Both the position numbers and the translations under genes were made by a program. 64,000 nt of DNA from positions 1 to 64,000 of IMG/VR virus record IMGVR_UViG_3300031760_000029; one strand, 5' to 3'. Source of the stretch: a virus (taxonomy: Duplodnaviria > Caudoviricetes). The notes below the pieces were generated by a model. That model saw only the letters and a list, made by a program, of their open reading frames with translations, did not search any database and was not told the origin of the DNA. Shown here one piece after another: positions 21,297-63,752 of this stretch (position 1 is its first letter; every line of letters starts with the position of its first letter).

Positions 21297-21605
21297 TTAT
21301 TCCTCGCTTTCTTTAATATACGGCTCTGGTTCATTAGTGTAATAATACATATATGCAACAGCGTTTTTTGCTACAGCATTATTACTCCATTCCGTCATGT
21401 CGTAATAAATATCATCAACCAAAAATATGTTGTCCACATATTTATATGTCACCCATATTCTTCTGTCTTTCGGAAATTCCTTTAATGGATCAGAAACAGG
21501 AATCCACTTCTGTTCCAACGCCTCCCGTATCTGCTTGCAAGTCTTTTCATTCCACGTTTCCTCACAAGCCCGCATTGCAAGTCTATATGCTTCTTCTCTT
21601 GTCAT
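21297..21605 (-). CDS. Mosaic accessory protein (MTREEA...KWIPVS...KESEE)
   Basis: GGAGG RBS; shares its first 18 nt with the ORF at 57394. Confidence 0.7.
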   Translation of the reverse strand: MTREEAYRLAMRACEETWNEKTCKQIREALEQKWIPVSDPLKEFPKDRRIWVTYKYVDNIFLVDDIYYDMTEWSNNAVAKNAVAYMYYYTNEPEPYIKESEE

Positions 21606-31837: not shown

Positions 31838-31945
31838 GCACTAAAATTAAAGCCCCACGCTACCACAGGTGGGGCATGAAAAAGAAAATAATCCCACATT
31901 TTGTGGGTGTAAATAAAACAACTGTTTGATTGAAAGGAGATCCAA

Positions 31946-34018
31946 ATGAACAAAGAAGAGAAGGCGGCACTTGTTAAGAAGTATTGCAACGAGAATACTA
32001 AGCCCAAGCAAGATTTATGCCCTGAGGTAAATCAGTACATCCGCACGTCAAAGGGATACGAGATTTGGAACTCCAAAGATTTAAGCAGGGAGCCGATTAA
32101 CTTTGACCCTACAAGATGGAGCGACGTAAGAGAATGCGGTCTCAACAATGTGGTTTGCGTTCGCAATGAATACGAAGGTCTTTACATCGAATACCACGAG
32201 GATATGGATACTCTTGAATTCGCCCACATCTTCATGGATGGCGGCAGAGGTAAGGCAGGCGAAGCGAAAGAATGGTACTACGGAAATGGCTGGAATTATT
32301 CCCGCTACTTCATCTTCCGCAATGATCCGAATGCATACAGCAATACTGGTATTCTTACTGGCAATACCCACTACTCAAAGGATTTACTGAAGGAAATGAA
32401 GACATGGTCACGTCGTAGTTTGGTAGGAGAAGAGAACTACGCAGAGTTTAAGAAGTTTGCTCCAGATTCAAGCGAACTCCGTGAGTACAATCACTGGTAC
32501 AGCACACCACTCGCTCAAATATGGCAGTATGCACGGTGGTATCAAATGGAGTTCATAAAGCGAACTTCGAGTAAGACATTTAATGATCTTTCTGCTTACG
32601 AATTAGATGATATCACGCCGCTTCCGTCGAAATCTGTGGTGGATGATAAGAAAATGATTTACTTCCAAAAACTTGACGACAAATATGCGGTTCTTCGTGT
32701 ATTCAGATATGGATACAGATATGAGATTAATTCAGACAAAATAATAGAAGAAATGCGTCTGTTTGTGTCTGACAAAGGTAAACCTACCGTCATGGTGAAT
32801 GATGGATACTGGAAAATAAAGGCGAGTACACCTTGGGCGGCGCAAGGAGCAGCGGTGATTATCAATGCAAGTGATATTCAGGAATGGAAGCCATTAAAAT
32901 ATATCATGCCTTGTATTGAGGATGATATAAATATTCAGAATTTTATCAATTATCTGCGGCATCCGATTGTTGAACAGTTGTCAAAGGCTGGTTATGTGAA
33001 TGTTGCAAAAAAATTGATGTATTGTGATGAGATTGCGTCAAATATGAAAACCTTCTTCCTTGTCGAAAAGGAAACAAAGCAGCCGATGTTTAAGTTGCTT
33101 GGTGTTAACAAGTTCGTACTTAACGCAATGGAGTGTCATGACGGGAACCTCAAGATTGCAAGAGAGATTAAATATTTTGTGGGTGGTTTCGATGCGACAG
33201 AATTGTCACAGGATGTTTGTGATTACATCGCGAACTATGTTGACAGTGGCAGATACGGCAGTAACAGCATTACAACCTTAGTTCCTGGACATAGATATGA
33301 GTACTGGCGCAGAGATAGTCGGTATAGTACGCCACTTACAGATGACGAAAAGAAATGGATTCTTAAGTTGTTCAAGATGGAATCCAAACAGACTGGTTGT
33401 ATTAGTTTGTTTGATGATGTTATCTCGACATACAACAGAATCAATAACAAGCCAGACATCGATCTCTACAACGTAAAGAACTATGACGACATAAACAGAT
33501 TACATGATGCTCTTGTTGCTCTTAAGGTACAGGAAGATAGAGAACGGCAGGCATTAAGAGATGCGTCAGAAAGAGAACGGCAGGAACTGCTTAAGAAGAA
33601 GTTTGAGAAACTTCAGGACGAACGTATCAAGAAATACGAGTATGAGGACGGAGACTTCTGCATCAGAGTCCCCCACCAGTTAGATGAAATCACAAAGGAA
33701 GGTATTGTGCTGAATCACTGTGTTGGCGGATATCTTGATAAGCACGCTCAGGGAATCACGAATATCCTTTTCCTGAGACGTAAGGCAGATGAGAATATTC
33801 CGTTCTATACCATCGAGATTTGTGATGACCATGTGATTCAGATTCACGGTAATCACAATCGTTGGCTCGGGAATAATCCTGAAGCGGTACCGTTCGTATA
33901 CAAGTATCTTGAGCAGTTAGGAGTTAGGTACGATAAGAAACTTCTGCTGAACAAGGGAGCTGGCTATAGTGCGGGAGACGAGGAGTTGCCCGAGAGTTAC
34001 TTACAGGAGGCTGCGTAA
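31946..34018 (+). CDS. PcfJ-domain protein (690 aa)
   Basis: C-terminal LHD, EG.VLNHCVGGY, FLRR, PFYTIEI, QIHG. Confidence 0.85.
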   Translation: MNKEEKAALVKKYCNENTKPKQDLCPEVNQYIRTSKGYEIWNSKDLSREPINFDPTRWSDVRECGLNNVVCVRNEYEGLYIEYHEDMDTLEFAHIFMDGGRGKAGEAKEWYYGNGWNYSRYFIFRNDPNAYSNTGILTGNTHYSKDLLKEMKTWSRRSLVGEENYAEFKKFAPDSSELREYNHWYSTPLAQIWQYARWYQMEFIKRTSSKTFNDLSAYELDDITPLPSKSVVDDKKMIYFQKLDDKYAVLRVFRYGYRYEINSDKIIEEMRLFVSDKGKPTVMVNDGYWKIKASTPWAAQGAAVIINASDIQEWKPLKYIMPCIEDDINIQNFINYLRHPIVEQLSKAGYVNVAKKLMYCDEIASNMKTFFLVEKETKQPMFKLLGVNKFVLNAMECHDGNLKIAREIKYFVGGFDATELSQDVCDYIANYVDSGRYGSNSITTLVPGHRYEYWRRDSRYSTPLTDDEKKWILKLFKMESKQTGCISLFDDVISTYNRINNKPDIDLYNVKNYDDINRLHDALVALKVQEDRERQALRDASERERQELLKKKFEKLQDERIKKYEYEDGDFCIRVPHQLDEITKEGIVLNHCVGGYLDKHAQGITNILFLRRKADENIPFYTIEICDDHVIQIHGNHNRWLGNNPEAVPFVYKYLEQLGVRYDKKLLLNKGAGYSAGDEELPESYLQEAA

Positions 34019-38182: not shown

Positions 38183-39169
38183 ATGGCGAAACAGATTGTT
38201 GGATTTGACCGTAAGACAATTTCATGGAACTGCAATCAGATAGTGAAGATGATGGAGAATGCTTCGATTCGCTTTGATTCAGCGGTTCAGAGGACGCTGG
38301 TCTGGGATCAGTCACGGAAGTCGCTTCTAATTCATTCGCTTATCACTGGAATGCCAGTTCCTGCATTCTATGCGGTTCGTGGTGCTGACAAGGTATACGA
38401 CTTCCTTGACGGAAAGCAGAGATGCAATGCAATCCGTGAGTATGTCAAGGGAATGTATTCACTAAAAGATGTACCGCCAGTTCTGTATGACGACGGAAGC
38501 GAAGAGGATATCAACGGAATGTTCTTCAGTGGTCTGTCTGAAGAGATGCAGGACAATATCAAGTCGTATTCATTGAATATCAACTACTTCGATGAACTCG
38601 AAGAGGAACAGCAGGAAGAGTTGTTTTACAGGATCAACAACGGGAAACCTCTTACACAGATTGAACAGTCCAGGGTTCGCTGCAATGCACTTCCGCAGAT
38701 TAAGGTTCTCGGACACCATCCTGTATATGACTTCTTGACTGACAAAGCGAGAGCGAGATACACGGACGAGGATTTGGTTACGAAGTCATTTGCAATCCTC
38801 AATATGGAGACACCGTGTTTGGACACTAAGGAAATCCGTCCATTCATGGAGAAGCTGGTGATTAACAAGGCAGACCACGACAAGATGTGGAAGATTTACG
38901 ACAACATTAAGAAGATGCACGACGAGATGATTGAGAACGAGGCGGGCACGCCAGCCAAGAGATTGTACGTCAAAACACATTTTCTCTCTATTATTCCGTT
39001 TGTTGCGGAACACGGGAAGCAGACAGAATTTCTCCAGCACTTCTTCAGTGGTGAGAGGATGACGATTTCGAAGAAATACAATGATAATGCAACTGCTGGT
39101 GTTGGCCATGTTCCAGCGGTAAAGGCAAGGCTCGATGCAATCGAGGCCGAGTGGAAGAAATTCCACTAA
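38183..39169 (+). CDS. DUF262 (GmrS/ParB-like) domain protein
   Basis: QRTLVW, LIHSL..G.PVP.FY, LDGKQR, LFYRINNGKPL. Confidence 0.85.
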   Translation: MAKQIVGFDRKTISWNCNQIVKMMENASIRFDSAVQRTLVWDQSRKSLLIHSLITGMPVPAFYAVRGADKVYDFLDGKQRCNAIREYVKGMYSLKDVPPVLYDDGSEEDINGMFFSGLSEEMQDNIKSYSLNINYFDELEEEQQEELFYRINNGKPLTQIEQSRVRCNALPQIKVLGHHPVYDFLTDKARARYTDEDLVTKSFAILNMETPCLDTKEIRPFMEKLVINKADHDKMWKIYDNIKKMHDEMIENEAGTPAKRLYVKTHFLSIIPFVAEHGKQTEFLQHFFSGERMTISKKYNDNATAGVGHVPAVKARLDAIEAEWKKFH

Positions 39170-39215
39170 ACAAGAGAAGCGGGGCAGTCAATCGGCTGCC
39201 CCAGGAGGGAGAGAT

Positions 39216-39365
39216 ATGGGCTTTTATTATGTTTATGCAGAAGATGATCGTTTGGTTGGAAGGTATGAAGATTTAGATGATGCAATTAAGATTGCTGAAT
39301 CTAAGCCGTATGCATGTTGGATTTGGAACAGCTACGAAGATAAAATAGTGTGGAGCAATCTGTAG
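39216..39365 (+). CDS. Hypothetical protein (49 aa)
   Basis: AGGAGGG RBS after a GGGGCAG/CTGCCCC hairpin. Confidence 0.6.
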   Translation: MGFYYVYAEDDRLVGRYEDLDDAIKIAESKPYACWIWNSYEDKIVWSNL

Positions 39366-39378
39366 GAAGGAGAGAAAT

Positions 39379-39615
39379 ATGGATACCATTACATTTGATG
39401 GAGTCAAGTATCCAGTACGGCTTATGGATTCCGATGAGTTTGGAATAGTGTATGTTGGTATTGAATCAATGGAGGATGCGATGCTTGATGATGAGTGTGA
39501 CTTAATAAATGAAGAGGCAGAGGCAATTGATTCGCAGATAATGTTCTATGTCCCTGATGAGATCATTGATGATGAAGGGAAGGTAATGTCGTATCTGAAT
39601 AGACACTTAGGATGA
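39379..39615 (+). CDS. Acidic hypothetical protein (78 aa)
   Basis: GAAGGAG RBS; stop is the start of the junction palindrome. Confidence 0.7.
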   Translation: MDTITFDGVKYPVRLMDSDEFGIVYVGIESMEDAMLDDECDLINEEAEAIDSQIMFYVPDEIIDDEGKVMSYLNRHLG

Positions 39616-39629
39616 AAGGAAAGTTTTAA

Positions 39630-40022
39630 ATGAATATGAATCTCAATATGAAATGGAATGATTATCCGTCAGCATCATTATACTTATGGAACGGATATAC
39701 AATCTTTCGGATTGCTGAGGGAACTGGAGATAATCTGACAAAAGAAGATGAAGAGGCTGGATATAAAGACTACTGGATGACCGAGTATGCCTCAGAAGGA
39801 GATTCTAACGGCGGCATGTGGCTGGAAACGGAATATATCAGCGATATTGATTACACTATTCAGGGAGTCCTCGATAGACTTATGGAATGTGATTTATGGG
39901 AAGACAACTGGGAAATCATTGACGAAGATCTTGGCATTGATTTGATGAATGCTATGGATAAGTATTGGTTTGCAAAGGGAGAAATGAAGAGATTGGTGGA
40001 GAAAGCAAATGGACGGGGATGA
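39630..40022 (+). CDS. Acidic hypothetical protein (130 aa)
   Basis: Cassette-array gene. Confidence 0.7.
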   Translation: MNMNLNMKWNDYPSASLYLWNGYTIFRIAEGTGDNLTKEDEEAGYKDYWMTEYASEGDSNGGMWLETEYISDIDYTIQGVLDRLMECDLWEDNWEIIDEDLGIDLMNAMDKYWFAKGEMKRLVEKANGRG

Positions 40023-40233
40023 TACATTAAAATTTCTCGAGGATTTGGAAAAGGAAACAACAAACAAGAAGCTACGGAATCTGCTGCACTGTCTTATCTC
40101 TTCCAGTCCAAGTCTCGACTTGGCATGTGGAGATTGGAACGACAGGGAGTATTTCTATGCAGAAGAATATGGTGAACTGGTTGAAGATACGGCAAGAGAA
40201 CTGGAAAACATTATGGGAGTTCGAAGGAAATAA
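40009..40233 (+). CDS. Hypothetical protein (74 aa)
   Basis: Cassette-array gene. Confidence 0.65.
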   Translation: MDGDDTLKFLEDLEKETTNKKLRNLLHCLISSSPSLDLACGDWNDREYFYAEEYGELVEDTARELENIMGVRRK

Positions 40234-40259
40234 AAGAAAGGTTTTGTGAGGTAAAAATC

Positions 40260-40460
40260 ATGAAAGAATATAGATTTCGTGTTGATTTGTGTGGCGGTTA
40301 TACTGATGGTTTTATTACGGTAAAGGCAGATGATGAAGGTAATGCATACGACAAGGCAACAGAATATGTTGGCAAGAAATTATATGAAGCATTTCCTGAA
40401 TTAGACATAGAATATAACGTTGAAGTATATGAAGAGTATGATACGGAAGAAGATGAATAA
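40260..40460 (+). CDS. Acidic hypothetical protein (66 aa)
   Basis: Cassette-array gene. Confidence 0.7.
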   Translation: MKEYRFRVDLCGGYTDGFITVKADDEGNAYDKATEYVGKKLYEAFPELDIEYNVEVYEEYDTEEDE

Positions 40461-40485
40461 AAACAACATTTCAAGGGAGGAAGCA

Positions 40486-40731
40486 ATGCAGAGACATTTA
40501 TACTTCGTTAAAATCCAGGGTCGGAAAGCAGTATACGATATCATCATAGCTGCTTTTAGTGAAGCAAATGCACGAGCAGTTGCAGAAGAATATTTTGAAA
40601 ATATAGCAATGGAAGTGAGGCCATGTACTTTAGAAGATATAGATAACGCAAAAGATAAAAGGATTATGCATATGAGTCACATAATGACTCCGTTAGATAG
40701 AGAAGTGGCTGAAAGATATGGTATTAAATAA
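40486..40731 (+). CDS. Hypothetical protein (81 aa)
   Basis: Start at ATG 40486 behind GGGAGG. Confidence 0.65.
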   Translation: MQRHLYFVKIQGRKAVYDIIIAAFSEANARAVAEEYFENIAMEVRPCTLEDIDNAKDKRIMHMSHIMTPLDREVAERYGIK

Positions 40732-40760
40732 AACCAAGATATTTCAAGAGAGGTAAATAT

Positions 40761-40931
40761 ATGGACGAGAAGTCACGGCTTTATGATGAAATAAGCAGAG
40801 TGCTGACGAATTACGAAGAGTATGTAAATGGAACTGGAGATGACAGTGAGATCTACGAGAGAGCTGCAGATATGTATTCTGTTTTGGTGGATATTCAGAA
40901 CCAGTGGGAGACGGTAATTACGGCACAATAA
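40761..40931 (+). CDS. Hypothetical protein (56 aa)
   Basis: Below cutoff; GAGG RBS, palindrome at both ends. Confidence 0.7.
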   Translation: MDEKSRLYDEISRVLTNYEEYVNGTGDDSEIYERAADMYSVLVDIQNQWETVITAQ

Positions 40932-40960
40932 ACCGAACATTTCAAGGAAGGTAAAAGAGA

Positions 40961-41122
40961 ATGACCAAAGCAGAAATCATTAAAGAACTTCATAGTTGTG
41001 GTGAGATGTGGGCAAATAATTCGTACTCAAAAGAATATCTGGAAAAGTATCTTGAAAAATACAAAGAAGCTACAAAAATGACGATTGAAGAATTATATGC
41101 AGCGATTAAGGCAAAGAAATAA
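40961..41122 (+). CDS. Hypothetical protein (53 aa)
   Basis: Below cutoff; palindrome at both ends. Confidence 0.65.
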   Translation: MTKAEIIKELHSCGEMWANNSYSKEYLEKYLEKYKEATKMTIEELYAAIKAKK

Positions 41123-41148
41123 AACCAAGATTTTATAAGGAGTGGATT

Positions 41149-41475
41149 ATGGTAGCTACAAAAACAGATGGATTACTTACATATACTGGTTTCAATCCAG
41201 TAGACAATGGAAAGATATGGATCACAGAAAAAGGGAATTATACATATGTACATAAACAAAATAATGAATGGTCTGTATCGTATGTTCCTATTGCAACGTA
41301 TGATTTAGCATATTTACAAGAAGCAAAACGATGTAGATATGTAGTGCCATCATACTCAATAGAAAAACGAATTATAGATGGTGAGACAGCATATCATTTT
41401 TGGAAAGGAAAGGACTATTGGTTCTTTGACAAAGATGAAGCGATAAAATTTATTCTCGACAATTGGAGCGAATGA
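41149..41475 (+). CDS. Hypothetical protein (108 aa)
   Basis: Cassette-array gene. Confidence 0.7.
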   Translation: MVATKTDGLLTYTGFNPVDNGKIWITEKGNYTYVHKQNNEWSVSYVPIATYDLAYLQEAKRCRYVVPSYSIEKRIIDGETAYHFWKGKDYWFFDKDEAIKFILDNWSE

Positions 41476-41499
41476 AACAAGGTTTTTAAGGGGTGCAAT

Positions 41500-41709
41500 A
41501 TGACAACAATAGAGATACTTACAGCTCTAATTAAAGAACTTGCAGCAAAGAATGGTTTCCCAGAGGATAGAATCCAAGTGTTCTGTGATGATGATGGCAA
41601 AATAGGAATCGATATAGATAACGGAGATTGGAGTAATTGTTTATCATACGATGAAGCCGAAGATCAGATATACAACCTGTTTAAGGGAATTGAATTGTGT
41701 AGTAAATGA
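41500..41709 (+). CDS. Acidic hypothetical protein (69 aa)
   Basis: Cassette-array gene. Confidence 0.7.
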   Translation: MTTIEILTALIKELAAKNGFPEDRIQVFCDDDGKIGIDIDNGDWSNCLSYDEAEDQIYNLFKGIELCSK

Positions 41710-41734
41710 AATAAGATTTTGATAGGAGATATTT

Positions 41735-41920
41735 ATGAGAATATATGATATCAAGTGGGATGTAGCAGATAGTGACCACAAGATTACTCTACCTAAAGAA
41801 GTAATTATCTCAGATCCTGATGAGGCAAAGATAATTGAAAATATGTATGATGGCGATATGGCTTATTATCTTTTTGATGAATACGGATACGATGTTAGAT
41901 CGTTTAGAGTAGATCAGTAA
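41735..41920 (+). CDS. Acidic hypothetical protein (61 aa)
   Basis: Cassette-array gene. Confidence 0.7.
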   Translation: MRIYDIKWDVADSDHKITLPKEVIISDPDEAKIIENMYDGDMAYYLFDEYGYDVRSFRVDQ

Positions 41921-41946
41921 AATAATGTTTTTAAGAGAGGTAAATT

Positions 41947-42144
41947 ATGGTAGCAGTATGTAGACCGCTTGAGGGAATTACGATTAATACAGAAGTTGAA
42001 TATGTATTAGATGATGATGGCGAAATTAAAGAGTTTGAAGATGTAGAAACAGCGGAGGAATGGTTAAAGGAACACGGAGTTACAGAAGAGATCATGGAGT
42101 ATCTGATGTTTGTTAACGCAGAAAACGGAGAGTTAATAAAATAA
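41947..42144 (+). CDS. Acidic hypothetical protein (65 aa)
   Basis: Cassette-array gene. Confidence 0.7.
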   Translation: MVAVCRPLEGITINTEVEYVLDDDGEIKEFEDVETAEEWLKEHGVTEEIMEYLMFVNAENGELIK

Positions 42145-42167
42145 CTTTTTGATAAGGAGGGACGGAT

Positions 42168-42335
42168 ATGAAGGGTAGACGAATCAGACAAATCAATAAT
42201 TTAACTATTCGCTACACTGATTTTTATCAGTATTCTGTATGGACTCCAGATGGACGATGCTGGGAAGACAGGATGACTTATAGCGAAGCTGTTGAGTTTT
42301 GTAAAAATACAAAGGATTTTGTAAATGAAAGCTGA
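42168..42335 (+). CDS. Hypothetical protein (55 aa)
   Basis: Below cutoff; AAGGAGG RBS. Confidence 0.65.
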   Translation: MKGRRIRQINNLTIRYTDFYQYSVWTPDGRCWEDRMTYSEAVEFCKNTKDFVNES

Positions 42336-42353
42336 ATTTAAAGGAAGCTGACT

Positions 42354-42530
42354 ATGGCATATATCTTAAAAGAATCGTGTGGAACGTGCAGACAAGATCC
42401 TATGGAACTAAAAGAGAGACAGGATTGTTTGGTGTATGACGAAATGGAATGTGAAGCAAAGGATTGTAATGAATGTTTCATGGTTGAAGAGGAAGACAAA
42501 AATGCATACATTGATCAAAGAATTGTGTGA
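42354..42530 (+). CDS. Cys-rich hypothetical protein (58 aa)
   Basis: Follows palindrome and AAGGAAG. Confidence 0.5.
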   Translation: MAYILKESCGTCRQDPMELKERQDCLVYDEMECEAKDCNECFMVEEEDKNAYIDQRIV

Positions 42531-42711
42531 GGAAAATGGGGTTGAATATAGCGAAAAGCTGTTTCGGGAAATACATTTTAGATGCTCTGATCTTGAAAAG
42601 GATGATGTAACCGAAAATATCCTGGCCTGCCTTGATTACATTAAAGACAACGGATTGGACGCGCTGATAAACGAGATGGATGACTGTAATATCTGGTCAT
42701 ACATTTGTTGA
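42502..42711 (+). CDS. Hypothetical protein (69 aa)
   Basis: GAGG RBS; ends next to a palindrome. Confidence 0.6.
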   Translation: MHTLIKELCEENGVEYSEKLFREIHFRCSDLEKDDVTENILACLDYIKDNGLDALINEMDDCNIWSYIC

Positions 42712-42744
42712 TAAAACGGTTATTCCAAAGGGAGGGCGAAAGCA

Positions 42745-43035
42745 ATGAAACATGAAGTAACTCTGTCGATTGAAAGTGTGCGGGCTGTTGCAAATGGAGA
42801 AGAATATGACAGTTGGGGAGAGGTCCAGGTATGGAATGGAAAGATAGGTGCCGAGTATAATCTGTGTTTTAATGGGGAAAATTGCAGCGCAATATATTTA
42901 ATGGGAGAAGATGATGATGGTTATTGGGACACTGATACTAGTACATTTGAACACTATGAGATAGATCCTGACGATCCTAAATGGAAAGAGAATTTAATCG
43001 AAGCGATGGAAAAATTTGTAAAAAATAATAGCTGA
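42745..43035 (+). CDS. Acidic hypothetical protein (96 aa)
   Basis: GGGAGGG RBS. Confidence 0.7.
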   Translation: MKHEVTLSIESVRAVANGEEYDSWGEVQVWNGKIGAEYNLCFNGENCSAIYLMGEDDDGYWDTDTSTFEHYEIDPDDPKWKENLIEAMEKFVKNNS

Positions 43036-43127
43036 ATACATACAATATATTGCACAAAGACAAATCATAGAATCAATATACTGTATACAAAATGCCAATA
43101 AAAGTAACGTTTAATTGGAGATGAAAC

Positions 43128-43340
43128 ATGTTGAAGAAGAAGACGGATAATGGCACGATCTCGGCAACGTCATTTGAAACAATGAATGAGAAGGGAATTG
43201 CAGTTGGTTTGTATGGAGAGATGAGTGTAGTGAGCTTTGAGAGCAATGGAAAAGGATTGATTCTTCTGATTAACGACGACATGATCGAGCAGTTTAGAGT
43301 GAATGTGTTACATACAGATGCAAATTGGAACGCGAAGTAA
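43128..43340 (+). CDS. Hypothetical protein (70 aa)
   Basis: Palindrome plus GGAG RBS. Confidence 0.65.
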   Translation: MLKKKTDNGTISATSFETMNEKGIAVGLYGEMSVVSFESNGKGLILLINDDMIEQFRVNVLHTDANWNAK

Positions 43341-43725
43341 GGGAGGAGAATAAAATAGCATGGATAATGCAATTGTAAAGGAAACACGAGATATATGGTG
43401 GAATGAAATTACAAACATCATTTATTGCTCCGAATCGTGTGAAAATGCAGCAGAAGAAATCCTTGAATATCTGGAGGAAGAGGGAGCATTTACGGTAGTG
43501 GATGATTAAGGGAGGACAAATTATGAGTAAGAGATATAAGGTGCGAATCGTTAGCAAGCGTAGCTCTATTGACCATGACTACTACACTGGAAACAAGGAG
43601 GTACGGTCTTACGTCTGGGACGAACCAGACAAAAAAGAGGAGCTGTTTCTATAGAAACCCAACACTTTTTTGAGATACGTAAGGTAATAATAGATATGAT
43701 ACAAAGTGATTCATAGGAGGGAAAT

Positions 43726-44019
43726 ATGACAGAAATGATTGGGGTAAATACAAGTGCTGGTGTGCTAAGAGCTTATAAGAGTGCAGATCCTGGTCAACCA
43801 GGTATTTGTGTAGTATTACAACCCAAAGGATATGATTGTGAAATAGATATGTCTTATGTATCTGTATATGAAGATCCAGAATATAAGACATATATGAATG
43901 AAGAACCTGAGGATGTATCGATTATGACATATGGAAATCCGTATAATGAAGACTACACAGATAAGGTAATGATTAGAAGAAATGATGTTGTGAATGCGTT
44001 AAATTATGAGGGAGAATAA
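43726..44019 (+). CDS. Acidic hypothetical protein (97 aa)
   Basis: AGGAGGG RBS. Confidence 0.7.
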   Translation: MTEMIGVNTSAGVLRAYKSADPGQPGICVVLQPKGYDCEIDMSYVSVYEDPEYKTYMNEEPEDVSIMTYGNPYNEDYTDKVMIRRNDVVNALNYEGE

Positions 44020-44020
44020 G

Positions 44021-44410
44021 ATGAAGGATGATATTTACAAGGGATGTATGTTGATCGGACACAGATTCAATCAAAAATATAGTACAGAAGAAACAGATGA
44101 TTGGAGTGGATCGGAAGAGTGTTCTACCGTAGCGAGATTAACATATACCCTGATGGATACATTGAACGTCAGCATGGAGAAAGCACTAGATATTGTAATG
44201 GAAATCGCTATGAATCAAGGCTTCCGAAAGGTTGAAGAACATATGTGGGATGACTACTGCAGAGGTTTTCTTGCTGGTCAGATCATCGGAATGCCAACCA
44301 AAGAGAATCTAAAGAAGGTAAATGAGGCAGAAGAACTTTGGTTGGATGATAGATATGGAAAATATGGATACTATCAGGAGGTCTTAGAAGAAGTTAGTAA
44401 TAAAATGTGA
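44021..44410 (+). CDS. Hypothetical protein (129 aa)
   Basis: GAGGGAG RBS. Confidence 0.7.
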   Translation: MKDDIYKGCMLIGHRFNQKYSTEETDDWSGSEECSTVARLTYTLMDTLNVSMEKALDIVMEIAMNQGFRKVEEHMWDDYCRGFLAGQIIGMPTKENLKKVNEAEELWLDDRYGKYGYYQEVLEEVSNKM

Positions 44411-44428
44411 TTTTGATGGAGGATAAAA

Positions 44429-44632
44429 ATGGATAACTTAAAGGAAACATTCTTACGGCGTTATATAGATACGATTGATGCATATTTGAATTATAAGGGA
44501 AGCGGCGAAGGTCACAGAGCCATCATGTATGTAATGGAAGAATATAAAAAGATAATGGTTGAAACGTTCGGAATGGAAGAAGATGCGGTAGAAAATATAT
44601 ATATGGATAAATATAAGGAGAAATACAGATGA
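44429..44632 (+). CDS. Hypothetical protein (67 aa)
   Basis: Palindrome plus GGAGG. Confidence 0.7.
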   Translation: MDNLKETFLRRYIDTIDAYLNYKGSGEGHRAIMYVMEEYKKIMVETFGMEEDAVENIYMDKYKEKYR

Positions 44633-44817
44633 ATGAGGAAAAAATAATAGCTAAACATTATGGTTTAAGACTTTATGATCTCAGCGAAGATCATGGACGC
44701 ACATGGATGGATAGATGGTTATATGATTATGAGGCAAATCAGTATGCTGCCGAATGTTTTGTAGTACGGGATCACGAAAGAATGTACATCATTGGTTCTA
44801 ATATGTATGGAGGCTAA
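44629..44817 (+). CDS. Hypothetical protein (62 aa)
   Basis: ATGA-coupled. Confidence 0.6.
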   Translation: MNEEKIIAKHYGLRLYDLSEDHGRTWMDRWLYDYEANQYAAECFVVRDHERMYIIGSNMYGG

Positions 44818-44819
44818 AT

Positions 44820-44909
44820 ATGAATAACAAGGGAATGGGAGTGTTAGAGATTTTGGTGGCTATAGCAATAACAATTGCACTTGCAGCATTTGTAGTATAC
44901 GTATTGTAA
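44820..44909 (+). CDS. 29-aa Flp/type IV prepilin-like peptide
   Basis: GGAGG RBS; MNNKG|MGVLEILVAIAITIALAAFVVYVL with Glu at +5. Confidence 0.6.
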   Translation: MNNKGMGVLEILVAIAITIALAAFVVYVL

Positions 44910-44930
44910 TAAATCGAGCGTTTGGACGAA

Positions 44931-44961
44931 AGAGAGTCGAGCGTTCGGCTCTCTTTTTTTT
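44931..44961 (+). terminator. Intrinsic terminator
   Basis: AGAGAGTCGA-gcgt-TCGGCTCTCT plus T-run. Confidence 0.85.
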
Positions 44962-44984
44962 GTACTCAAAAATAAGGAGGCCAT

Positions 44985-45461
44985 ATGAAAACATACAAAC
45001 TGTTCAGAGTTCGCAATGGAAAGCTGTTCCCGCTTTATGTTGAAGCAAACAGGGAGATGGAAGTTGGTAAGTGGTTACGGTCTGGATGTGGGGCGAAGGT
45101 AGATGACACACATGTAAAGGCAAGTGGATGTGGAGGGAAGTTAAGTCTTAGGAGTGGTTTTCATAGCACGAAGATCCCGTTCACAGATTGGATTGGCAAG
45201 AAGTCGGAAGATGGAACGCTGCTGCAGAGGGAAGATACAGTTTGGTGTGAGTGTGAAGTAAAAGGGAATGAGGTTGAAAGCCCTGGGAGATATGGATATA
45301 GAGAGATTCCTAAGAATAAGTGGTATTACTTTCGCACAAACTCAAAGCAAAAGGATCCTTGGATTATTAGCGACTGGCTGAAAATTAATCGGATTTTAAA
45401 TCACGATGAAGTGAAGAATATTTGTGCTGCAAATGGAATTGTTGCTCAGGCAATGGCTTAA
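44985..45461 (+). CDS. Conserved phage protein (158 aa)
   Basis: KTYKLFR...GKLFPLYV, R.GFH, VWCECEV. Confidence 0.7.
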   Translation: MKTYKLFRVRNGKLFPLYVEANREMEVGKWLRSGCGAKVDDTHVKASGCGGKLSLRSGFHSTKIPFTDWIGKKSEDGTLLQREDTVWCECEVKGNEVESPGRYGYREIPKNKWYYFRTNSKQKDPWIISDWLKINRILNHDEVKNICAANGIVAQAMA

Positions 45462-47776: not shown

Positions 47777-48718
47777 ATGAGTGGGCGAGCTGAAATGGAT
47801 AAGAAAAATGATAAATGGATAAATGAGAGAAAAGGTAAATGCTCTCAATTCGTCTCCGATTATATTGATAGTATCGATGGTGTAAAAACATCTGCCACCA
47901 GAAAGCAATATTTGTATTATCTGATGGATTTTGAGAAATATATTAAGAAATTAAATGTTGATATATGTAAAGTAAAACCATTTCATGTTGAAAAGTATCG
48001 AAATTGTCTAACTAAAAATGGAAATAAGGCAAGTATCGTTAATGGAAAACTGTCTGCGATTATTTCTTTTTACAATTTTCTAATCAAAAATGGATTTGTA
48101 GACAAGAATCCATGTGATAATGACATGAAATTAAAAATTGCAGAAAAAGAATCTGTTGTATATATGACAGATGAAGAGATTCATAAGTTAAAGGAAAATA
48201 TCGTTTCATGTAAAAATAGGCATAGTGATAGATTTGTATTAAGAGATTTATGTATAGTTCAACTTGGATGTGCTACTGGTTTGCGTGTTTCTGCTATTGT
48301 TAATATAGATATTGATGATATTGATTTTGAGCAAATGACAATTAAAGTTGTTGAAAAGGGAAATAAAGTAAGGACGATATATATTGGCGAAAACACAGTG
48401 AATAGTATTAAGAACTGGCTAAAAGAAAGAGTTATAACCGTTCGAAACAAGGAAGAGAGAGCTTTATTCATTGGTAATCATGGTGGTCGTATGTCTGCTT
48501 CAGCTGTACGAAATCTATTGAAACATGATGCGGGCGAGTTTGGTAAGCATATCACTCCTCATAAAATGCGTTCAACATGTGCCATGAAACTATACGATAA
48601 GACTGGAGATATTTATTTAACAGCACAGCAGCTCGGGCATGCTAATGTGAAAAACACCATGATATACGCAAAAGCAACAGAAGAGAAACGACGTATGGCC
48701 GCAGATTTGTTAGATTGA
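47777..48718 (+). CDS. Tyrosine recombinase (XerC/D-like; SPbeta YopP/SroD position)
   Basis: SAM-like N-terminal domain; catalytic R (GLRVS), K (EKGNK), HxxR (HKMR), H (LGH), Y (TMIY) all present. Confidence 0.92.
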   Translation: MSGRAEMDKKNDKWINERKGKCSQFVSDYIDSIDGVKTSATRKQYLYYLMDFEKYIKKLNVDICKVKPFHVEKYRNCLTKNGNKASIVNGKLSAIISFYNFLIKNGFVDKNPCDNDMKLKIAEKESVVYMTDEEIHKLKENIVSCKNRHSDRFVLRDLCIVQLGCATGLRVSAIVNIDIDDIDFEQMTIKVVEKGNKVRTIYIGENTVNSIKNWLKERVITVRNKEERALFIGNHGGRMSASAVRNLLKHDAGEFGKHITPHKMRSTCAMKLYDKTGDIYLTAQQLGHANVKNTMIYAKATEEKRRMAADLLD

Positions 48719-50250: not shown

Positions 50251-51168
50251 ATGTTTAACACAGAGAGAAAAGAAAAATTTATAGCAGAGAATAATAATTT
50301 TGCAGAAAAGGAACTATACGAAAAGAGAATTCGTTTTCTTTTTTCTCAAACTGCTGGGCTAGAAGAAGAATATGGAAAAGATCTGTGTGATTTCTCGTAC
50401 AATGAAATTATCGACTATTACAAGGCGTTGACTACTGCATCATTGGATCGACTAATTGTTACAAATAATATATTTACTACATACGGAGCTTGGTGTCTAA
50501 AGAATGGTTATGTTCAAGATGGACTTAATCACTATGCAGAAATTACATCGGATGTGTTGAATACATGTATAAATCTTGGGCATCAAAGAGATTTATTCAT
50601 ACCTAGATCGGAGTTACTTAACGCGATCAGGGGATTTGGCAACAAATATGAAGAGGTAATTGTTCTTGGATTGTATGAAGGATTAGATTTAATTGATTTG
50701 CAGAATCTGACTATTAATGATATCAATAGTCATAAATATGAAGTAAGATTACAAAAAGAAAGAACGTTGACTGTATCAAAAGAACTTATCTCTACTATGA
50801 TTGAATCTGCAGATACGTATGAAGTTGTACAAATGGATGATAGAAAGAGAAAATTGTATGATGATTACAAAAAGGATTCTCCGTTAATAATCAAATTGTT
50901 TAAAGAAAGATCTATGGATGATCGTACATCACAATTATTTAATATTATGAAGAGAATCAAGGCAAATTACGGATACTCCTGGTTGAGTGCGGCAAACCTT
51001 CCAATGATTGGTTCAGCCAATATGTTATTGGAGCTTTTGCAAAAAGAAAAGGGAAAGACAGCTGAGGAGGTGGCAAACGAACACATTGCTGAATTTAAGT
51101 TGAGATATGGACCATATTGGAGATACGGAAAGAGGATGAAATTGAAGTTTGGATATCTTTATGAGTAG
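50251..51168 (+). CDS. Catalytically dead tyrosine-recombinase-fold protein, MrpR/YopR/SroF-like repressor
   Basis: MFNTERKEKFI...EEEYGKDLCDFS.NEI N-terminus; LYEGLDLIDL lacks the catalytic Arg; follows the DGQHR gene. Confidence 0.7.
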   Translation: MFNTERKEKFIAENNNFAEKELYEKRIRFLFSQTAGLEEEYGKDLCDFSYNEIIDYYKALTTASLDRLIVTNNIFTTYGAWCLKNGYVQDGLNHYAEITSDVLNTCINLGHQRDLFIPRSELLNAIRGFGNKYEEVIVLGLYEGLDLIDLQNLTINDINSHKYEVRLQKERTLTVSKELISTMIESADTYEVVQMDDRKRKLYDDYKKDSPLIIKLFKERSMDDRTSQLFNIMKRIKANYGYSWLSAANLPMIGSANMLLELLQKEKGKTAEEVANEHIAEFKLRYGPYWRYGKRMKLKFGYLYE

Positions 51169-52844: not shown

Positions 52845-53993
52845 ATGGGAAAATTTGGTAAAAAACATGTTATTGATCTGAATCCTTTAAGTTTTCAGAT
52901 TTGTCTAAGTGGGCTCGGTGGTATCGGCAAGACCACTCTGGCTAAGGAAGTTTGTGAAAAACTTGTTGGAGAGAATGGATATATACATTTTAATATCGGA
53001 CGTGAAGGTGGTGTGGATGCAATTTCAAACATTGTGTCTGAACCAATTGAAGATTGGGAAAAGTTGGAAGAAGTTGTTGATGACATCGTCGAAAATAAAG
53101 ATAGTGATTATCCAGATTTAAAGGTTGTTGTTTGGGATAGTTTGGATGAATTAATTCGACTCGGAGAAGCGGAAACTATTCGTTTGGAGAATAAAAAGAA
53201 TCCAAGTGAAAAAGTTGACTCGATTTTAAAGTGCAGAGGCGGTTTTGGAAAAGGACAGGATTTCTGTATCAATATGATTCTTGATTGTATGTGGGCATTA
53301 AAAAATGTAGGCGTGAATTCGTTTATCATAGCACACACAAAAAGATCAGATATTATTGATCCTGTTTCTCAGGCCACATATTCCCAGTTGACGGCTGATG
53401 CTCAACAGAGATATTTCAATGCAATTCGAAATAAGATGGATATCATTGCTGTTGGATATATTGATAGGGAAATTGCACAGGAGAACACTGGACGTAAAAA
53501 CATCGTGACTAAAAAGGATATTACGATCAATAAGGTATCTTCTGAAACAAGAGTAATTTCTTTCAGAGACGATAGTTACAGTATAGATAGTAAGTCTAGA
53601 TTCGCTGATATTGCTGACAAAATTCCTTTTGATTCGGACGAATTCATTAAAGCAATTCAGGACGCAATTAAGGCCGAGAATGAAAAAAGTGGATTATCTT
53701 CTGCTGAGATAAAGAAAACTCAGGCAGCTAAAGATAAAAAGATGAAGGAAGATGCGTCTGCATATTCTAAGAAAGCAAAAGAGAATCATGTAGACACCGA
53801 TCGCAACGACGAACTGGTCGCACAGATCAAACCTTTATATAAAGCTGCGGAGCAGGAAACCAAGGATGCAGTAAAAGAAATCATGGCAGAATATGAAATT
53901 AAATCCTTCAAAGATGTCTCCGAGACACCCACAGTAGCACTTGAGAAGATCTTATCGATTCTTTCTGAGAAGATCGTATCGATTCTCTCGTAA
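52845..53993 (+). CDS. AAA_24/Sak4-like P-loop ATPase (YorG-like)
   Basis: GLGGIGKTT, VVWDSLD, IIAH, SKSRF. Confidence 0.85.
   Translation: MGKFGKKHVIDLNPLSFQICLSGLGGIGKTTLAKEVCEKLVGENGYIHFNIGREGGVDAISNIVSEPIEDWEKLEEVVDDIVENKDSDYPDLKVVVWDSLDELIRLGEAETIRLENKKNPSEKVDSILKCRGGFGKGQDFCINMILDCMWALKNVGVNSFIIAHTKRSDIIDPVSQATYSQLTADAQQRYFNAIRNKMDIIAVGYIDREIAQENTGRKNIVTKKDITINKVSSETRVISFRDDSYSIDSKSRFADIADKIPFDSDEFIKAIQDAIKAENEKSGLSSAEIKKTQAAKDKKMKEDASAYSKKAKENHVDTDRNDELVAQIKPLYKAAEQETKDAVKEIMAEYEIKSFKDVSETPTVALEKILSILSEKIVSILS
53942..53989 (+). repeat. 24-bp tandem duplication at the ATPase 3' end
   Basis: TGAGAAGATC(T/G)TATCGATTCT(T/C)TC x2, encoding EKILSILS/EKIVSILS. Confidence 0.9.
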
Positions 53994-59003: not shown

Positions 59004-59198
59004 ATGAAAAGTAAATGTTTATTATTTTTGACAATATCGCTTTTTTTGTTGATGTTTATATATCTAATTTTCAACATCGACAAAGATGGAAAGATTGTGT
59101 ACGATGGCGGATTCTTTCGTATTATGCAGCAAGATGAAGATCAGTATATGGAAATATACGATGATGGAGCACCAAAAATTATCGAGGGGGATAACTAA
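59004..59198 (+). CDS. Small membrane-anchored protein (64 aa)
   Basis: N-terminal TM segment; TAATG-coupled to the RNA ligase gene. Confidence 0.55.
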   Translation: MKSKCLLFLTISLFLLMFIYLIFNIDKDGKIVYDGGFFRIMQQDEDQYMEIYDDGAPKIIEGDN

Positions 59199-60355
59199 TG
59201 TTAAACGAAAACAAGGAACGAGAGCTTGCGTATATAGTAGTAGTTGACAATGTCGAACCAATTGATGGTTACGACAAGATTGCTTATGCAACGGTTGGCG
59301 GCTGGCACTGTGTCGTTGGTGCAGATATGAAAGCTGGAGATAAGGCGATTTATTTTGAAATTGATTCTCTGTTGCCGAGCACGGATCAGAGATTTGCATT
59401 CTGCGAAAAATATCATTACAAGGTGAAAACCCAAAAATACTGTAAGGGATCTAGAATCTCACAGGGCTTGTTACTTCCGATTACAGAGTTTCCTGAGTTT
59501 GTAGATGCTGAAGTGGGAACATTTGTTACTAAGCAGCTTGGTGTTACCTATTACGATCCAATGGACCGTGCAAGGAAGAGTAAGGGCGAATCAACTCCTC
59601 AGTATAAGAACTGGTTTAAGAGATGGAGTAAGAGATTTCCATTCAAACAGTTGTTGAGTACAAGGATTGGTAGAAAGGTTTTATTTCCGATCTTTACCGT
59701 TAAAAAGAAAAAGCGCGTTTGGCCAGACTTTATTCCGAAGACGGATGAAGAAAGAATAAATAACTGCTGTTATGTATTAAATGATAAGACACCATACGAG
59801 GTGTCGGAGAAGGTCGACGGTTCAAGTAGCAGTTATGGCATCAGACGTGGTAAGCATGGCAAGTATGAGTACTATGTATGTTCTCGTAACGTAGTATTCC
59901 CCAGCGCCGATCAAACGTCGTATTATGCCAAGAATATTTGGTGGGAGATGTATGAAAAATATAACATCAAGGATTTTTTAACAGATTTCCTTGAGAAGAC
60001 TGGTGCAGAGTGGGTATATCTCCAGGGAGAGACGTTCGGTGATGGAGTACAGAAGCGTGATTACTCTATCAAGTGCAGAGATTTCAGAGCGTTCGTCCTG
60101 TGTACTTCGCAGCGTGTCAGATACTCGTATGCGGAAACCAAGGAGATACTTGATCAATATAATATTCCTACAGTGCCGATTATTGACACGAATTTCATTC
60201 TGCCAGATACCGCTGATGAGTTAATCACATATGCTGCTGGTCCATCTGCTATTGATGGATTGCCGAGAGAGGGTATTGTCTTAAGAAGTGTAAATGATCC
60301 GACAAAGAGCTTTAAAGCCGTAGATCCAGCTTATTTACTGCGTTTCCACGGATGA
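59198..60355 (+). CDS. RNA ligase (Rnl2-like, DRB0094 type)
   Basis: N-terminal OB-like domain (GW.CVV, YFEIDS.LP, ISQGL); motif I EKVDGSS; LQGETFG; REGIV; SFKAV. Confidence 0.88.
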   Translation: MLNENKERELAYIVVVDNVEPIDGYDKIAYATVGGWHCVVGADMKAGDKAIYFEIDSLLPSTDQRFAFCEKYHYKVKTQKYCKGSRISQGLLLPITEFPEFVDAEVGTFVTKQLGVTYYDPMDRARKSKGESTPQYKNWFKRWSKRFPFKQLLSTRIGRKVLFPIFTVKKKKRVWPDFIPKTDEERINNCCYVLNDKTPYEVSEKVDGSSSSYGIRRGKHGKYEYYVCSRNVVFPSADQTSYYAKNIWWEMYEKYNIKDFLTDFLEKTGAEWVYLQGETFGDGVQKRDYSIKCRDFRAFVLCTSQRVRYSYAETKEILDQYNIPTVPIIDTNFILPDTADELITYAAGPSAIDGLPREGIVLRSVNDPTKSFKAVDPAYLLRFHG

Positions 60356-62624: not shown

Positions 62625-63752
62625 ATGGTATACTTAGATAATGCAGCAACCACGCGGGTTAGACCAAAAGTCGCGGACGTGATGGACGCGTGGACGCGTA
62701 GTGATTATGGATTCGGAAATCCAAGCAGTCCTTATGAGATTGGACGCGACGCGCATCAAGCAATTTATCGCGCAAGATGTCATGTGGCAAATATGATTAA
62801 TGCAGATCCAGACGATATCTTCTTTACATCTTGTGGATCAGAGGCGAACTCTTGGGCAATCGATGGACTGTATTGTATCGAAAATGGTGGCGCGGTATTG
62901 ATGTCCAACATCGAACATCATTCTATTCTGAATAATAGATGTAAAAAGAAACTGATTGGCGTTGATCACAATGGACGTATTGATCTGCAGGCTCTGGAGG
63001 ACAACATCGAAGCAGACACTCCAATTGTCGCGATTATGATGGTCAATAATGAGATCGGAACTGTTCAGGATATTGCAACTCTGGATGAGATGTGCCTTGA
63101 CCACAACGTATTTCTTCATATGGATGCGGTACAGGCTCTTGGGCACATCCCGATTGATGTGAGTAAATTCAGCGCTATCAGTTCGATTTCAATGAGTGCG
63201 CACAAGATTGGCGGACCCAAGGGTGTTGGCGCATTATGGATACAGAGAGATGTGCAGCAGCTTTATCATTCGCTTATTCACGGAGGCCAGCAGGAACAAG
63301 GAAAGCGCGGCGGAACAGAAAATATTACTGGCATTATCGGGTTTGGTGAAGCATGTCATGAGACATATTTGAATATGCCATACGAACATGCGAAATACAA
63401 TGACTTCAAGAATCTATTCGTTAGTGGATTGAGTAGTAAGATTGATGGTATTGAATTCAATCGCGGTGTTGATGATATGTTTGTTCCCAATATCATTAGC
63501 ACCAAAATTAAAGGGGTAAAAGCGGAAGAACTTATTGAATATCTAAATGTTGAACACGTGTATGTATCCTCTGGATCTGCTTGCAATACAAGTGATAATG
63601 AACCTTCGCATGTACTAAAGTCGATTGGATTATCTGATGAAGATGCTAACAGCACAATTCGCGTGTCGTTTGGATGGGATACAGAAGCAGATGATGTAAA
63701 GAATGGAATTAATGCGATTGTGCGTGGAGTTGAGCTATTAAGGAGCAGATGA
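62625..63752 (+). CDS. iscS: Cysteine desulfurase (group I, IscS/NifS)
   Basis: YLDNAAT, FTSCGSEAN, EHHS, VNNEIG, HMDAVQ, SAHKIGGPKG (PLP Lys), RGGTEN, SSGSAC (catalytic Cys). Confidence 0.93.
   Translation: MVYLDNAATTRVRPKVADVMDAWTRSDYGFGNPSSPYEIGRDAHQAIYRARCHVANMINADPDDIFFTSCGSEANSWAIDGLYCIENGGAVLMSNIEHHSILNNRCKKKLIGVDHNGRIDLQALEDNIEADTPIVAIMMVNNEIGTVQDIATLDEMCLDHNVFLHMDAVQALGHIPIDVSKFSAISSISMSAHKIGGPKGVGALWIQRDVQQLYHSLIHGGQQEQGKRGGTENITGIIGFGEACHETYLNMPYEHAKYNDFKNLFVSGLSSKIDGIEFNRGVDDMFVPNIISTKIKGVKAEELIEYLNVEHVYVSSGSACNTSDNEPSHVLKSIGLSDEDANSTIRVSFGWDTEADDVKNGINAIVRGVELLRSR

Follow-up and report, generated by a model that had tools for sequence, protein, structure and literature searches.

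The window analyzed here, 64,000 nucleotides of the virus record IMGVR_UViG_3300031760_000029 (Duplodnaviria; Caudoviricetes) that make up the start of a single contig of 82.6 kb, contains an operon-like array of about 24 small co-directional open reading frames (ORFs; 29-130 aa, 39216..44909 according to the ORF list), and a short element of the type T(A/G)AAA-N6-TTT(T/C/G)A recurs at the junctions between these genes. On balance, and with confidence only a little above even, we read this element as translational punctuation that doubles as a short-homology border of gene slots, comparable to the promoter-early stem-loop (PeSL) elements of T4-type phages and specific to a lineage of phages of gut Clostridia. 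The element probably marks gene slots by way of ordinary short-homology recombination and not through an integron-like enzyme.

The element consists, in this order, of one or more stop codons that usually close two to three frames, a run of A, a 6-nt core drawn from a limited number of classes, a T-run of the form TTT(G/T/C)A, a Shine-Dalgarno (SD) sequence and a start codon. During translation, it would terminate the upstream ORF in any frame and offer an unstructured, A/U-rich ribosome-binding region to the next small gene of a long polycistronic early or accessory transcript. Short-homology recombination would swap, insert or delete single accessory genes, the array ORFs being the cargo of the slots, and the elements would persist. 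The likely agent would be a relaxed recombination system of the phage itself, such as the Sak4-like AAA_24 protein encoded at 52845..53993 on the plus strand (Pfam PF13479, E 6.5e-20), a candidate single-strand-annealing recombinase, and no dedicated tyrosine recombinase would be needed. Recombinases of this kind act on short, diverged homology in phages (PMC3945230, PMC5499656), and Sak4 is one of the two families analyzed in the latter study (PMC5499656). The comparison of related phages shows that exchange does take place at the slots; the enzyme we infer.

The junction element and the small-gene array

A first-pass annotation of this DNA, made from the letters alone, had listed 14 copies of the element in the array and one further copy at 31914, and all of them are present, each on the plus strand. 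The consensus proposed with them, T[AG]AAA-N6-TTT[TCG]A, held in part: it is matched exactly by eight of the 14 array sites and by the outlying copy (TAAAA-CAACTG-TTTGA, 31914..31929, in front of a PcfJ-like gene at 31946-34018), and the other six array sites deviate in one feature each. The strict sites are TGAAA-GGAAAG-TTTTA (39613..39628), TAAAA-ACAACA-TTTCA (40458..40473), TAAAA-CCAAGA-TTTTA (41120..41135), TGAAA-CAAGGT-TTTTA (41473..41488), TGAAA-TAAGAT-TTTGA (41707..41722), TAAAA-TAATGT-TTTTA (41918..41933), TAAAA-TAACTT-TTTGA (42137..42152) and TAAAA-TGTGAT-TTTGA (44401..44416). The first of these is atypical, as the SD sequence lies in its core and an ATG follows after 1 nt. Deviations concern mainly the right arm, which ends in TTTTG at 40231 (TAAAA-GAAAGG-TTTTG, 40231..40246), in TTTAA at 42326 and 43099 (TGAAA-GCTGAA-TTTAA, 42326..42341, and TAAAA-GTAACG-TTTAA, 43099..43114) and in TTCCA at 42712 (TAAAA-CGGTTA-TTCCA, 42712..42727); the site at 40929 starts with TAAAC (TAAAC-CGAACA-TTTCA, 40929..40944) and that at 40729 has a spacer of eight nucleotides (TAAAA-CCAAGATA-TTTCA, 40729..40746). 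Almost all sites had been described as beginning at or next to the upstream stop codon. The left arm is the true stop in nine of the 14 cases (e.g., for ORFs 39379-39615 and 40009-40233 at the sites 39613 and 40231). The true stop lies 3-7 nt away from the left arm in four others, namely 42137 (5 nt inside the element), 42326 and 44401 (both at +7) and 42712, and the element at 43099 follows the upstream stop only after 64 nt.

In comparison with shuffled sequence, the motif is strongly enriched. Between positions 39379 and 44817, the strict form occurs eight times against 0.21 expected copies (500 dinucleotide shuffles, maximum 3) and a relaxed form 13 times against 1.08 (maximum 5); the plus strand of the whole window carries 13 motif copies, with 1.9 expected. 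Nor is the element equally common at junctions outside the array: a full copy lies no more than 45 nt in front of 11 of 21 array genes, three of 86 other plus-strand genes and none of 36 minus-strand genes. An unbiased repeat finder returned the array junctions as the top direct-repeat families (D1, D2, D3, D5 and D8), with the site at 40231 in family D2. A second junction word, GAAAGYGAGG, was encountered in eight copies (0.19 expected) at gene ends in other accessory blocks (positions 21302, 27924, 29631, 29807, 56796, 57013, 57761 and 58174) and is absent from the array at 39.4-44.8 kb. As it is confined to the other blocks, this genome uses at least two block-specific types of junction.

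All array ORFs are encoded on the plus strand and, in agreement with the first-pass annotation, they are unrelated to each other and mostly acidic: BLASTP of the array ORFs against one another found no paralogues, which rules out tandem duplication of paralogous genes, and 18 of the 24 have an isoelectric point below 5.5. No family scored above threshold in a Pfam scan of 20 of them, and blastn of the region 39000-45000 against public phage records gave no match. A putative role of the array ORFs in anti-defense is plausible from the context of PcfJ, DUF5688 and DUF932 genes and acidic ORFans. Promoter-like sites are not in excess within the array (18 versus 33.8 expected from shuffles) and none falls inside any of its stop-to-start gaps; the sole predicted promoter that overlaps an element has its hexamers at 42113-42142, ends in the site at 42137 and consists mostly of coding sequence. 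An intrinsic terminator on the plus strand (44928..44957) with a 13-bp stem and a T-run closes the array, is the only one of the array and recurs in related phages as identity islands of 33-37 nt. Given the lack of promoter excess and the single strong terminator, the array reads as one operon; a promoter or terminator at each junction, which we also considered, was not found in the array. Two peculiarities of the cargo may be recorded here: the 29-aa ORF at 44820-44909, directly before the terminator, keeps its length and position in the gene tables of all close relatives, and the ORFs 42354-42530 (58 aa) and 42469-42711 (80-91 aa) share about 60-95 nt in two different frames, and the gene tables of the relatives list both of them.

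The 5' border of the array is also marked. A GC-rich hairpin, GGGGCAGTC-AATC-GGCTGCCCC (39181..39202, plus strand), stands directly before the first array gene and does so in every relative, following a DUF262 or a DUF932 gene (L002 ~11005, L003 ~11030, L006 ~10186, L008 7393, L010 11007 and L011 12057; the L numbers denote the related contigs introduced below). It is letter-perfect in four phages, with exact identity islands of 22-26 nt in L008, L010 and L011, and its 9-bp consensus stem shows three compensatory pairs across seven phages. The plus strand lacks a T-run at this place, and a terminator-like site is called on the minus strand. The hairpin may serve in RNA processing, as a stabilizer or as an array-start site.

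Core classes and gene exchange in related phages

For comparison, we used the metagenomic phage contigs L002, L003, L006, L007, L008, L010, L011/L012, L115 and L116, which were traced from ENA/Logan contigs via homologues of the DUF262 protein and the 158-aa protein encoded in the flanks of the array. In all relatives, conserved flanks enclose an array of small genes, the content of which differs greatly. The array is thus hypervariable: flanking genes share 60-89% protein identity with those of related phages, and only a handful of the array ORFs of the window have any homologue there. The intergenic gaps in the window and eight related loci are trimodal, with lengths of -4/-1, 9-18 and 23-31 nt. 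In the 9-18-nt class, the stop codon is placed directly before GGAGGTG, and it is the 23-31-nt class that carries the element, with the consensus TAAAA-N6-TTTGAT-GGAGG. Stop codons close at least two frames in 49 of 57 elements and all three in 20 of them. In 21 of the 57, the upstream ORF ends elsewhere (in the core, at a right-arm TGA or just upstream) and the left-arm TAA is kept nevertheless. Since the TAA is retained where it is not used and the gap class is discrete, the element is a unit in its own right and not a mere stop codon near a ribosome-binding site. The arrays of L006 and L007 contain a third type of junction, in which the stop codon abuts GGAGGTGCCT-ATG in a gap of 9-13 nt; it is almost letter-perfect between unrelated genes (e.g., L006 2969, L007 1311 and L007 727).

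The 6-nt core had been taken for a variable sequence. This view could not be maintained: among 58 elements, 32 pairs with identical cores were found versus 1.3 expected (column shuffle, maximum 8 in 2000), and in 29 of these 32 pairs the identity of both flanks is at background level. Among the classes that recur are TCTGAG, CGGTTA, ACAACA, GAGATG, ATACTC/A, TAACAT, TCACTG, CGAATA, CGACTA and TAGATT. A locus contains both members of an identical-core pair in one case only, and one of the two lies outside any array. Likewise, isolated exact matches of at least 18 nt between phages number 26 as opposed to one in a reversed-sequence control; nine of these are elements, and most of the remaining ones fall on SD junctions, the array-start hairpin or the terminator. 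Five elements of the window have twins with identical cores and unrelated flanks, with exact runs of 13-26 nt: the core of 40458 recurs in L006, L007 and L008 (exact run up to 19 nt), that of 41120 in L116, that of 42137 in L116 at 7854 and that of 42712, CGGTTA, in L006, L007 and L010 (TGGTTA in L002), and the longest twin links 41707 with L116 7649 over 26 nt, within an island of 35 nt and 94% identity in BLAST. As the same 13-26-nt sequences are present at corresponding places in related phages, they qualify as slot borders.

The order of the classes is conserved in two pairs of phages. L006 and L007 have eight classes in common, all collinear, which none of 2000 permutations reached, and the five classes shared by L002 and L010 are all collinear as well (P = 0.007). 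In the central part of L006 and L007, five consecutive elements are kept (TGAACG, TAGATT, CGACTA, CGGTTA and ATACTx), and the intervening genes are unequal in number and length and have neither DNA nor protein similarity. Protein similarity is likewise absent from the genes that separate the shared elements of L002 and L010. For the classes that the window shares with L116, three of four are collinear, which is not significant (P = 0.53).

The core classes are specific to this lineage: in IMG/VR, neither the CGGTTA nor the TCTGAG class is represented by a copy at a junction. Of 54 matches to the pattern TAAAACGGTTATTTNAT in that database, none is followed by a ribosome-binding site, and they are therefore regarded as chance matches, and a stricter pattern for the TCTGAG class gave none at all. 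A single-protein search of IMG/VR with the DUF262 gene returned nothing, and one with GP88 returned a single distant locus without elements. It follows from these searches that the phage family is essentially absent from IMG/VR. Similar junctions (stop, AAA, N6, TTTTA, TTGGAGG) were noticed in mobile-element regions of Clostridium/Lachnospiraceae genome contigs (L033, L037, L041 and L046), where they have recurring cores of their own (GATTGA, ACTTGA, TTCGAT and TCCGGT), and elements of this type may extend beyond this phage family.

Exchange of single genes is seen for a 56-aa cassette (40761..40931, plus strand) that the window shares with L002 at 96% amino acid and 88% nucleotide identity, compared with about 71% nucleotide identity in backbone genes. 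Homology begins at the right arm and SD sequence of the element at 40729, which forms the upstream border of the cassette, runs through the stop codon and core of the element at 40929, which thus travels with the cassette upstream of it, and ends after the TTT. In the same manner, L007 4675-4903 matches L010 from element to element. The element goes with the downstream gene in two further comparisons (L006 2684 with L007 1493, and L007 4703 with L010 14193). The best-resolved comparison, and the only near-identical one, is that of the window with L115, which is 95% identical in the flanks and shows four indels inside the array. Relative to the window segment 43100-48720, L115 lacks the genes 43726-44019 and 44629-44817 and has extra genes at 43128 and 43650; the elements at 43099 and 44401 are kept, the former there preceding an inserted gene for 68 aa. 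Two extra genes are located exactly at the 44401 junction, between the homologues of 44021-44410 and 44429-44632, in one relative (sample ERZ27257202), as seen from gene lengths only. Further downstream, the window segment 47013-48718 with a 251-aa ORF and an Xer-like recombinase is replaced in L115 by genes for RadC, a different integrase, an ADP-ribosylglycohydrolase and a CpsB/CapC-like protein.

Several observations weigh against the interpretation of the element as a slot border. Homologous genes occur both with and without it (e.g., L008 4514 without). Mosaicism also reaches below the level of the gene: a 100-aa gene of L011 shares only the ribosome-binding site and the first ~45 nt, with the MDEKSRLYDEII-like N-terminus, with the 56-aa cassette (L011 12119-12165 and window 40749-40805), followed by complete divergence. 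Element-free homologues and sub-gene mosaics mean that recombination is not confined to the element. All four breakpoints between the window and L115 are placed at the SD-ATG segment or at gene ends and none in the A-N6-T part, and two of the four indels are at element-free junctions. More distant pairs of phages share classes without collinearity. Rad52-like phage recombinases do act on sequences that are short and diverged; for Red-beta, the quoted minimum of exact pairing is 23-27 bp (PMC3945230), a length that the exact runs seen here (13-26 nt) just reach or fall short of. Finally, the cores could be conserved for another reason, namely purifying selection on an interaction with RNA or protein. 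Over all comparisons, breakpoints fall at the left edge of the element, at its right edge or downstream of it, and the elements are too alike to resolve internal crossovers. Recombination seems, as far as alignments can tell, to be concentrated at stereotyped junction sequences without a fixed point in the A-N6-T core. Of the cassette system envisaged in the first-pass annotation, the part that is supported is that junctions border independently exchangeable single genes, as seen from the hypervariable array, the cassette 40761-40931 and the collinear classes; a mechanism based on a tyrosine recombinase is not supported.

Known systems and alternative explanations

The element belongs with the junction and linker elements of hyperplastic phage regions and is not an integron. 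PeSLs are its closest known analogue. They are mobile regulatory cassettes of T4-type phages, for which modular shuffling by homologous recombination between the repeats has been proposed and for which mini-circles arising from exchange between neighboring repeats are a feature (PMC2839356, PMC4122927). Shared with PeSLs are the composite unit, which begins with the stop codon of the upstream gene, continues as an AT-rich stretch and ends with the SD sequence and start of the next gene, the concentration in hyperplastic regions rich in small ORFans and the position of the repeats at the bounds of indels and replacements between related phages, with the addition that breakpoints are here also seen at element-free junctions. 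In contrast to PeSLs, the unit described here contains neither a sigma-70 promoter nor a stem-loop terminator, measures only about 25-30 nt, would be purely translational punctuation inside one operon, belongs to a different host phylum (Clostridia) and carries cores that form discrete classes and keep their order between phages.

A second parallel is provided by the SAS elements of Cluster K mycobacteriophages, which have 13 bp (GGGATAGGAGCCC) and are positioned 3-7 bp before start codons, and by ESAS, which add 17-bp inverted repeats upstream; their function is unexplained, and a role in translation is suspected (PMC3203893). Like SAS, the element is a repeated motif in one orientation that includes an SD sequence and stands directly upstream of the starts of non-structural genes of different families, and the inverted repeat that ESAS carry immediately upstream, with a spacer that varies, has its counterpart here as well. 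The sequences are entirely different, however, SAS being GC-rich and the arms of ESAS comprising 17 bp, as opposed to 5-bp arms of A and T only. Moreover, the element includes the upstream stop codon, and it persists while genes change, whereas ESAS follows the gene family. Sequences conserved at the boundaries between modules of lambdoid phages, also called linkers, were reportedly described by Clark and colleagues in the Journal of Molecular Biology in 2001 and are said to have been proposed to target recombination between unrelated modules. These are likewise short conserved sequences at gene borders; the element is much shorter and stereotyped (A-N6-T plus SD), is present at nearly every junction of one operon and has recurring core classes.

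Among the alternatives, it is possible, if rather unlikely, that the element is a purely functional RNA or DNA site bound by a phage or host factor, e.g., a translational repressor or activator of early genes as is suspected for SAS and ESAS; its sequence, with the cores, would be held by purifying selection at homologous positions, neighboring genes would turn over by whatever mechanism, and recombination would be incidental. Such a site would be in line with the single orientation, the tie to the SD sequence and the confinement to one accessory operon. The other identity islands, i.e., the terminator and the hairpin, are clearly functional at homologous positions, positional homology would lead one to expect the collinear order in related phages, the breakpoints in the closest relative lie beside the element and not within it, and inverted arms, a variable spacer and an SD sequence are paralleled by ESAS and SAS (PMC3203893). 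Nevertheless, if a factor recognized A/T arms of 5 bp, distinct specific cores would not be maintained from one position to the next, and the cores are letter-perfect between phages with about 70% backbone identity. No candidate factor was identified, there is no stable structure, and no Rfam family matches, a sub-threshold snoRNA hit outside the junctions being a chance match. In addition, the same classes are non-collinear between more distant phages, which requires movement or recombination.

We consider it improbable that a site-specific cassette system operates here, in which a tyrosine recombinase (encoded at 47777 or 50251) or another enzyme would cut at the arms and exchange strands across the 6-nt core, so that identical cores would be needed. 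An A-N6-T dyad with constant 6-nt spacing, discrete core classes that recur between phages and are almost never repeated in one phage, as a requirement for spacer identity predicts, and conserved order with exchanged cargo, which resembles heterospecific-site exchange, speak for such a system, and most relatives conserve a pair of tyrosine recombinases some kb downstream. Tyrosine-recombinase core sites typically have arms of 9-13 bp. The spacing of lox/FRT/dif-type sites is indeed found in the elements (6, rarely 7-8 nt), but inverted arms of ~9-13 bp are not: the arms are imperfect and comprise 5 bp, the conserved dyad is only TAAAA/TTTNA, and outside of it the left side is coding and the right side is the SD sequence. 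Position 4 of the right arm varies freely, and this arm is a general ribosome-site context. The gene at 47777..48718 (plus strand), put forward as the array enzyme by the first-pass annotation and assigned to a PHROG integrase group, encodes an Xer-like protein and not an integron integrase. Its best matches are NCBIfam Xer models, all below cut-off, and the integron-integrase model TIGR02249 scores 64 bits with a cut-off of 265 (NF011946, 35.9 with a cut-off of 435). The gene is co-oriented with the array and located 3.4 kb downstream; it and the second recombinase lie behind the terminator, and both fit ordinary integration or dimer resolution (MrpR-like). L115 keeps the elements and has an integrase of only 28% identity in place of the 47777 protein, for which no link to the element was found, and breakpoints are situated outside the cores and at element-free junctions. 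Co-occurrence of the elements with the Xer-like recombinase among the loci is confounded by the 20-kb windows compared, and only its replacement in L115 is counted here.

The comparison with integrons leads to the same result. Promoterless, co-oriented single-gene cassettes are common to both, and in both the site is placed at the 3' terminus of the ORF, on the stop codon or close to it; in one case (40929) the site travels with the upstream ORF. The attC sites of integrons are folded imperfect palindromes of 57-141 nt with R''/L'' and L'/R' boxes. The elements, on the other hand, have 16-18 nt and are unfolded, the attC boxes GTTRRRY/RYYYAAC are absent from the array junctions, neither an attI-like site nor a folded attC-like structure is present, and there is no IntI-type integrase with attI or Pc next to it; breakpoints do not occur at a fixed position. 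With 5-bp arms, no folding, no IntI-type enzyme and breakpoints outside the cores, the integron-like mechanism is not supported. A variant that we rate as slightly less probable still is that the cores act as addresses in a natural heterospecific-site cassette exchange, in which an enzyme swaps cargo only between slots with the same core. Either of the conserved tyrosine recombinases could be that enzyme; another candidate is the DUF262/ParB-like nuclease, whose gene is next to the array here and in most relatives. If true, this would explain why cores are letter-perfect, collinear in two phage pairs and almost never duplicated within a genome.

A compositional coincidence, in which a TAA stop codon, an AT-rich spacer of minimal length and a U-rich ribosome-site context mimic a palindrome, is very unlikely. 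It is true that the motif is short and AT-rich, that the left arm is usually a stop codon and that the right arm is partly generic, TTYNA being placed just 5' of the SD sequence at 17-19% of other genes on both strands versus 3% of random windows; the site at 39613 looks like such a case. Nevertheless, coincidence does not account for the strict motif count given above, the distinct third mode of gap lengths, the TAA kept where it is not the in-frame stop, or the letter-perfect twins of 13-26 nt with unrelated flanks in diverged phages (32 identical-core pairs against 1.3). Least of all do we expect mRNA hairpins for translational coupling or processing, the other possibility raised earlier: the A-run and the T-run could pair, with four to five A-U pairs at some sites, but ViennaRNA folding of 15 elements yielded 0.0 kcal/mol for 13 and no less than -0.7 for the other two, and covariation between position 2 of the left arm and position 4 of the right arm is absent, so that this alternative falls.

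Phage context and significance of the element

The large terminase is encoded on the minus strand of the window. Genes on the plus strand follow each other in the order PcfJ-like, DUF5688, DUF932, DUF262/GmrSD_N (38183-39169), small-gene array, 158-aa gene (44985-45461), GP88-like, Xer-like and MrpR-like tyrosine recombinases (the latter at 50251) and AAA_24 (Sak4-like). The terminase and this gene content identify the window as part of a phage or phage-like element. Lachnospiraceae and Oscillospiraceae genomes hold distant homologues of the DUF262 gene, which suggests a host range within these gut Clostridia. In the replication-side block, genes for an RNA ligase-like protein (PF09414 plus OB fold) and a class-V aminotransferase/cysteine-desulfurase-like protein were noted (59198-60355 and 62625-63752, respectively).

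If the reading as punctuation and slot border is correct, a widespread family of gut Clostridia phages, whose 158-aa flank protein has more than 600 relatives in metagenomes, keeps its accessory genes, which probably serve host takeover or anti-defense, as a row of slots. Borders of about 25 nt would provide a frame-independent stop and restart of translation together with shared handles for gene swapping. The unexpected part is the existence of discrete, order-preserving core classes, with the order kept in two phage pairs, which has not been described for PeSLs or SAS. The element would explain single-gene mosaicism in non-model phages by a mechanism that is concrete and testable, and it would further offer a signature by which orphan accessory genes could be harvested from metagenomes in large numbers by looking between elements, and a compact natural insulator or linker part for the engineering of Lachnospiraceae and Oscillospiraceae phages.

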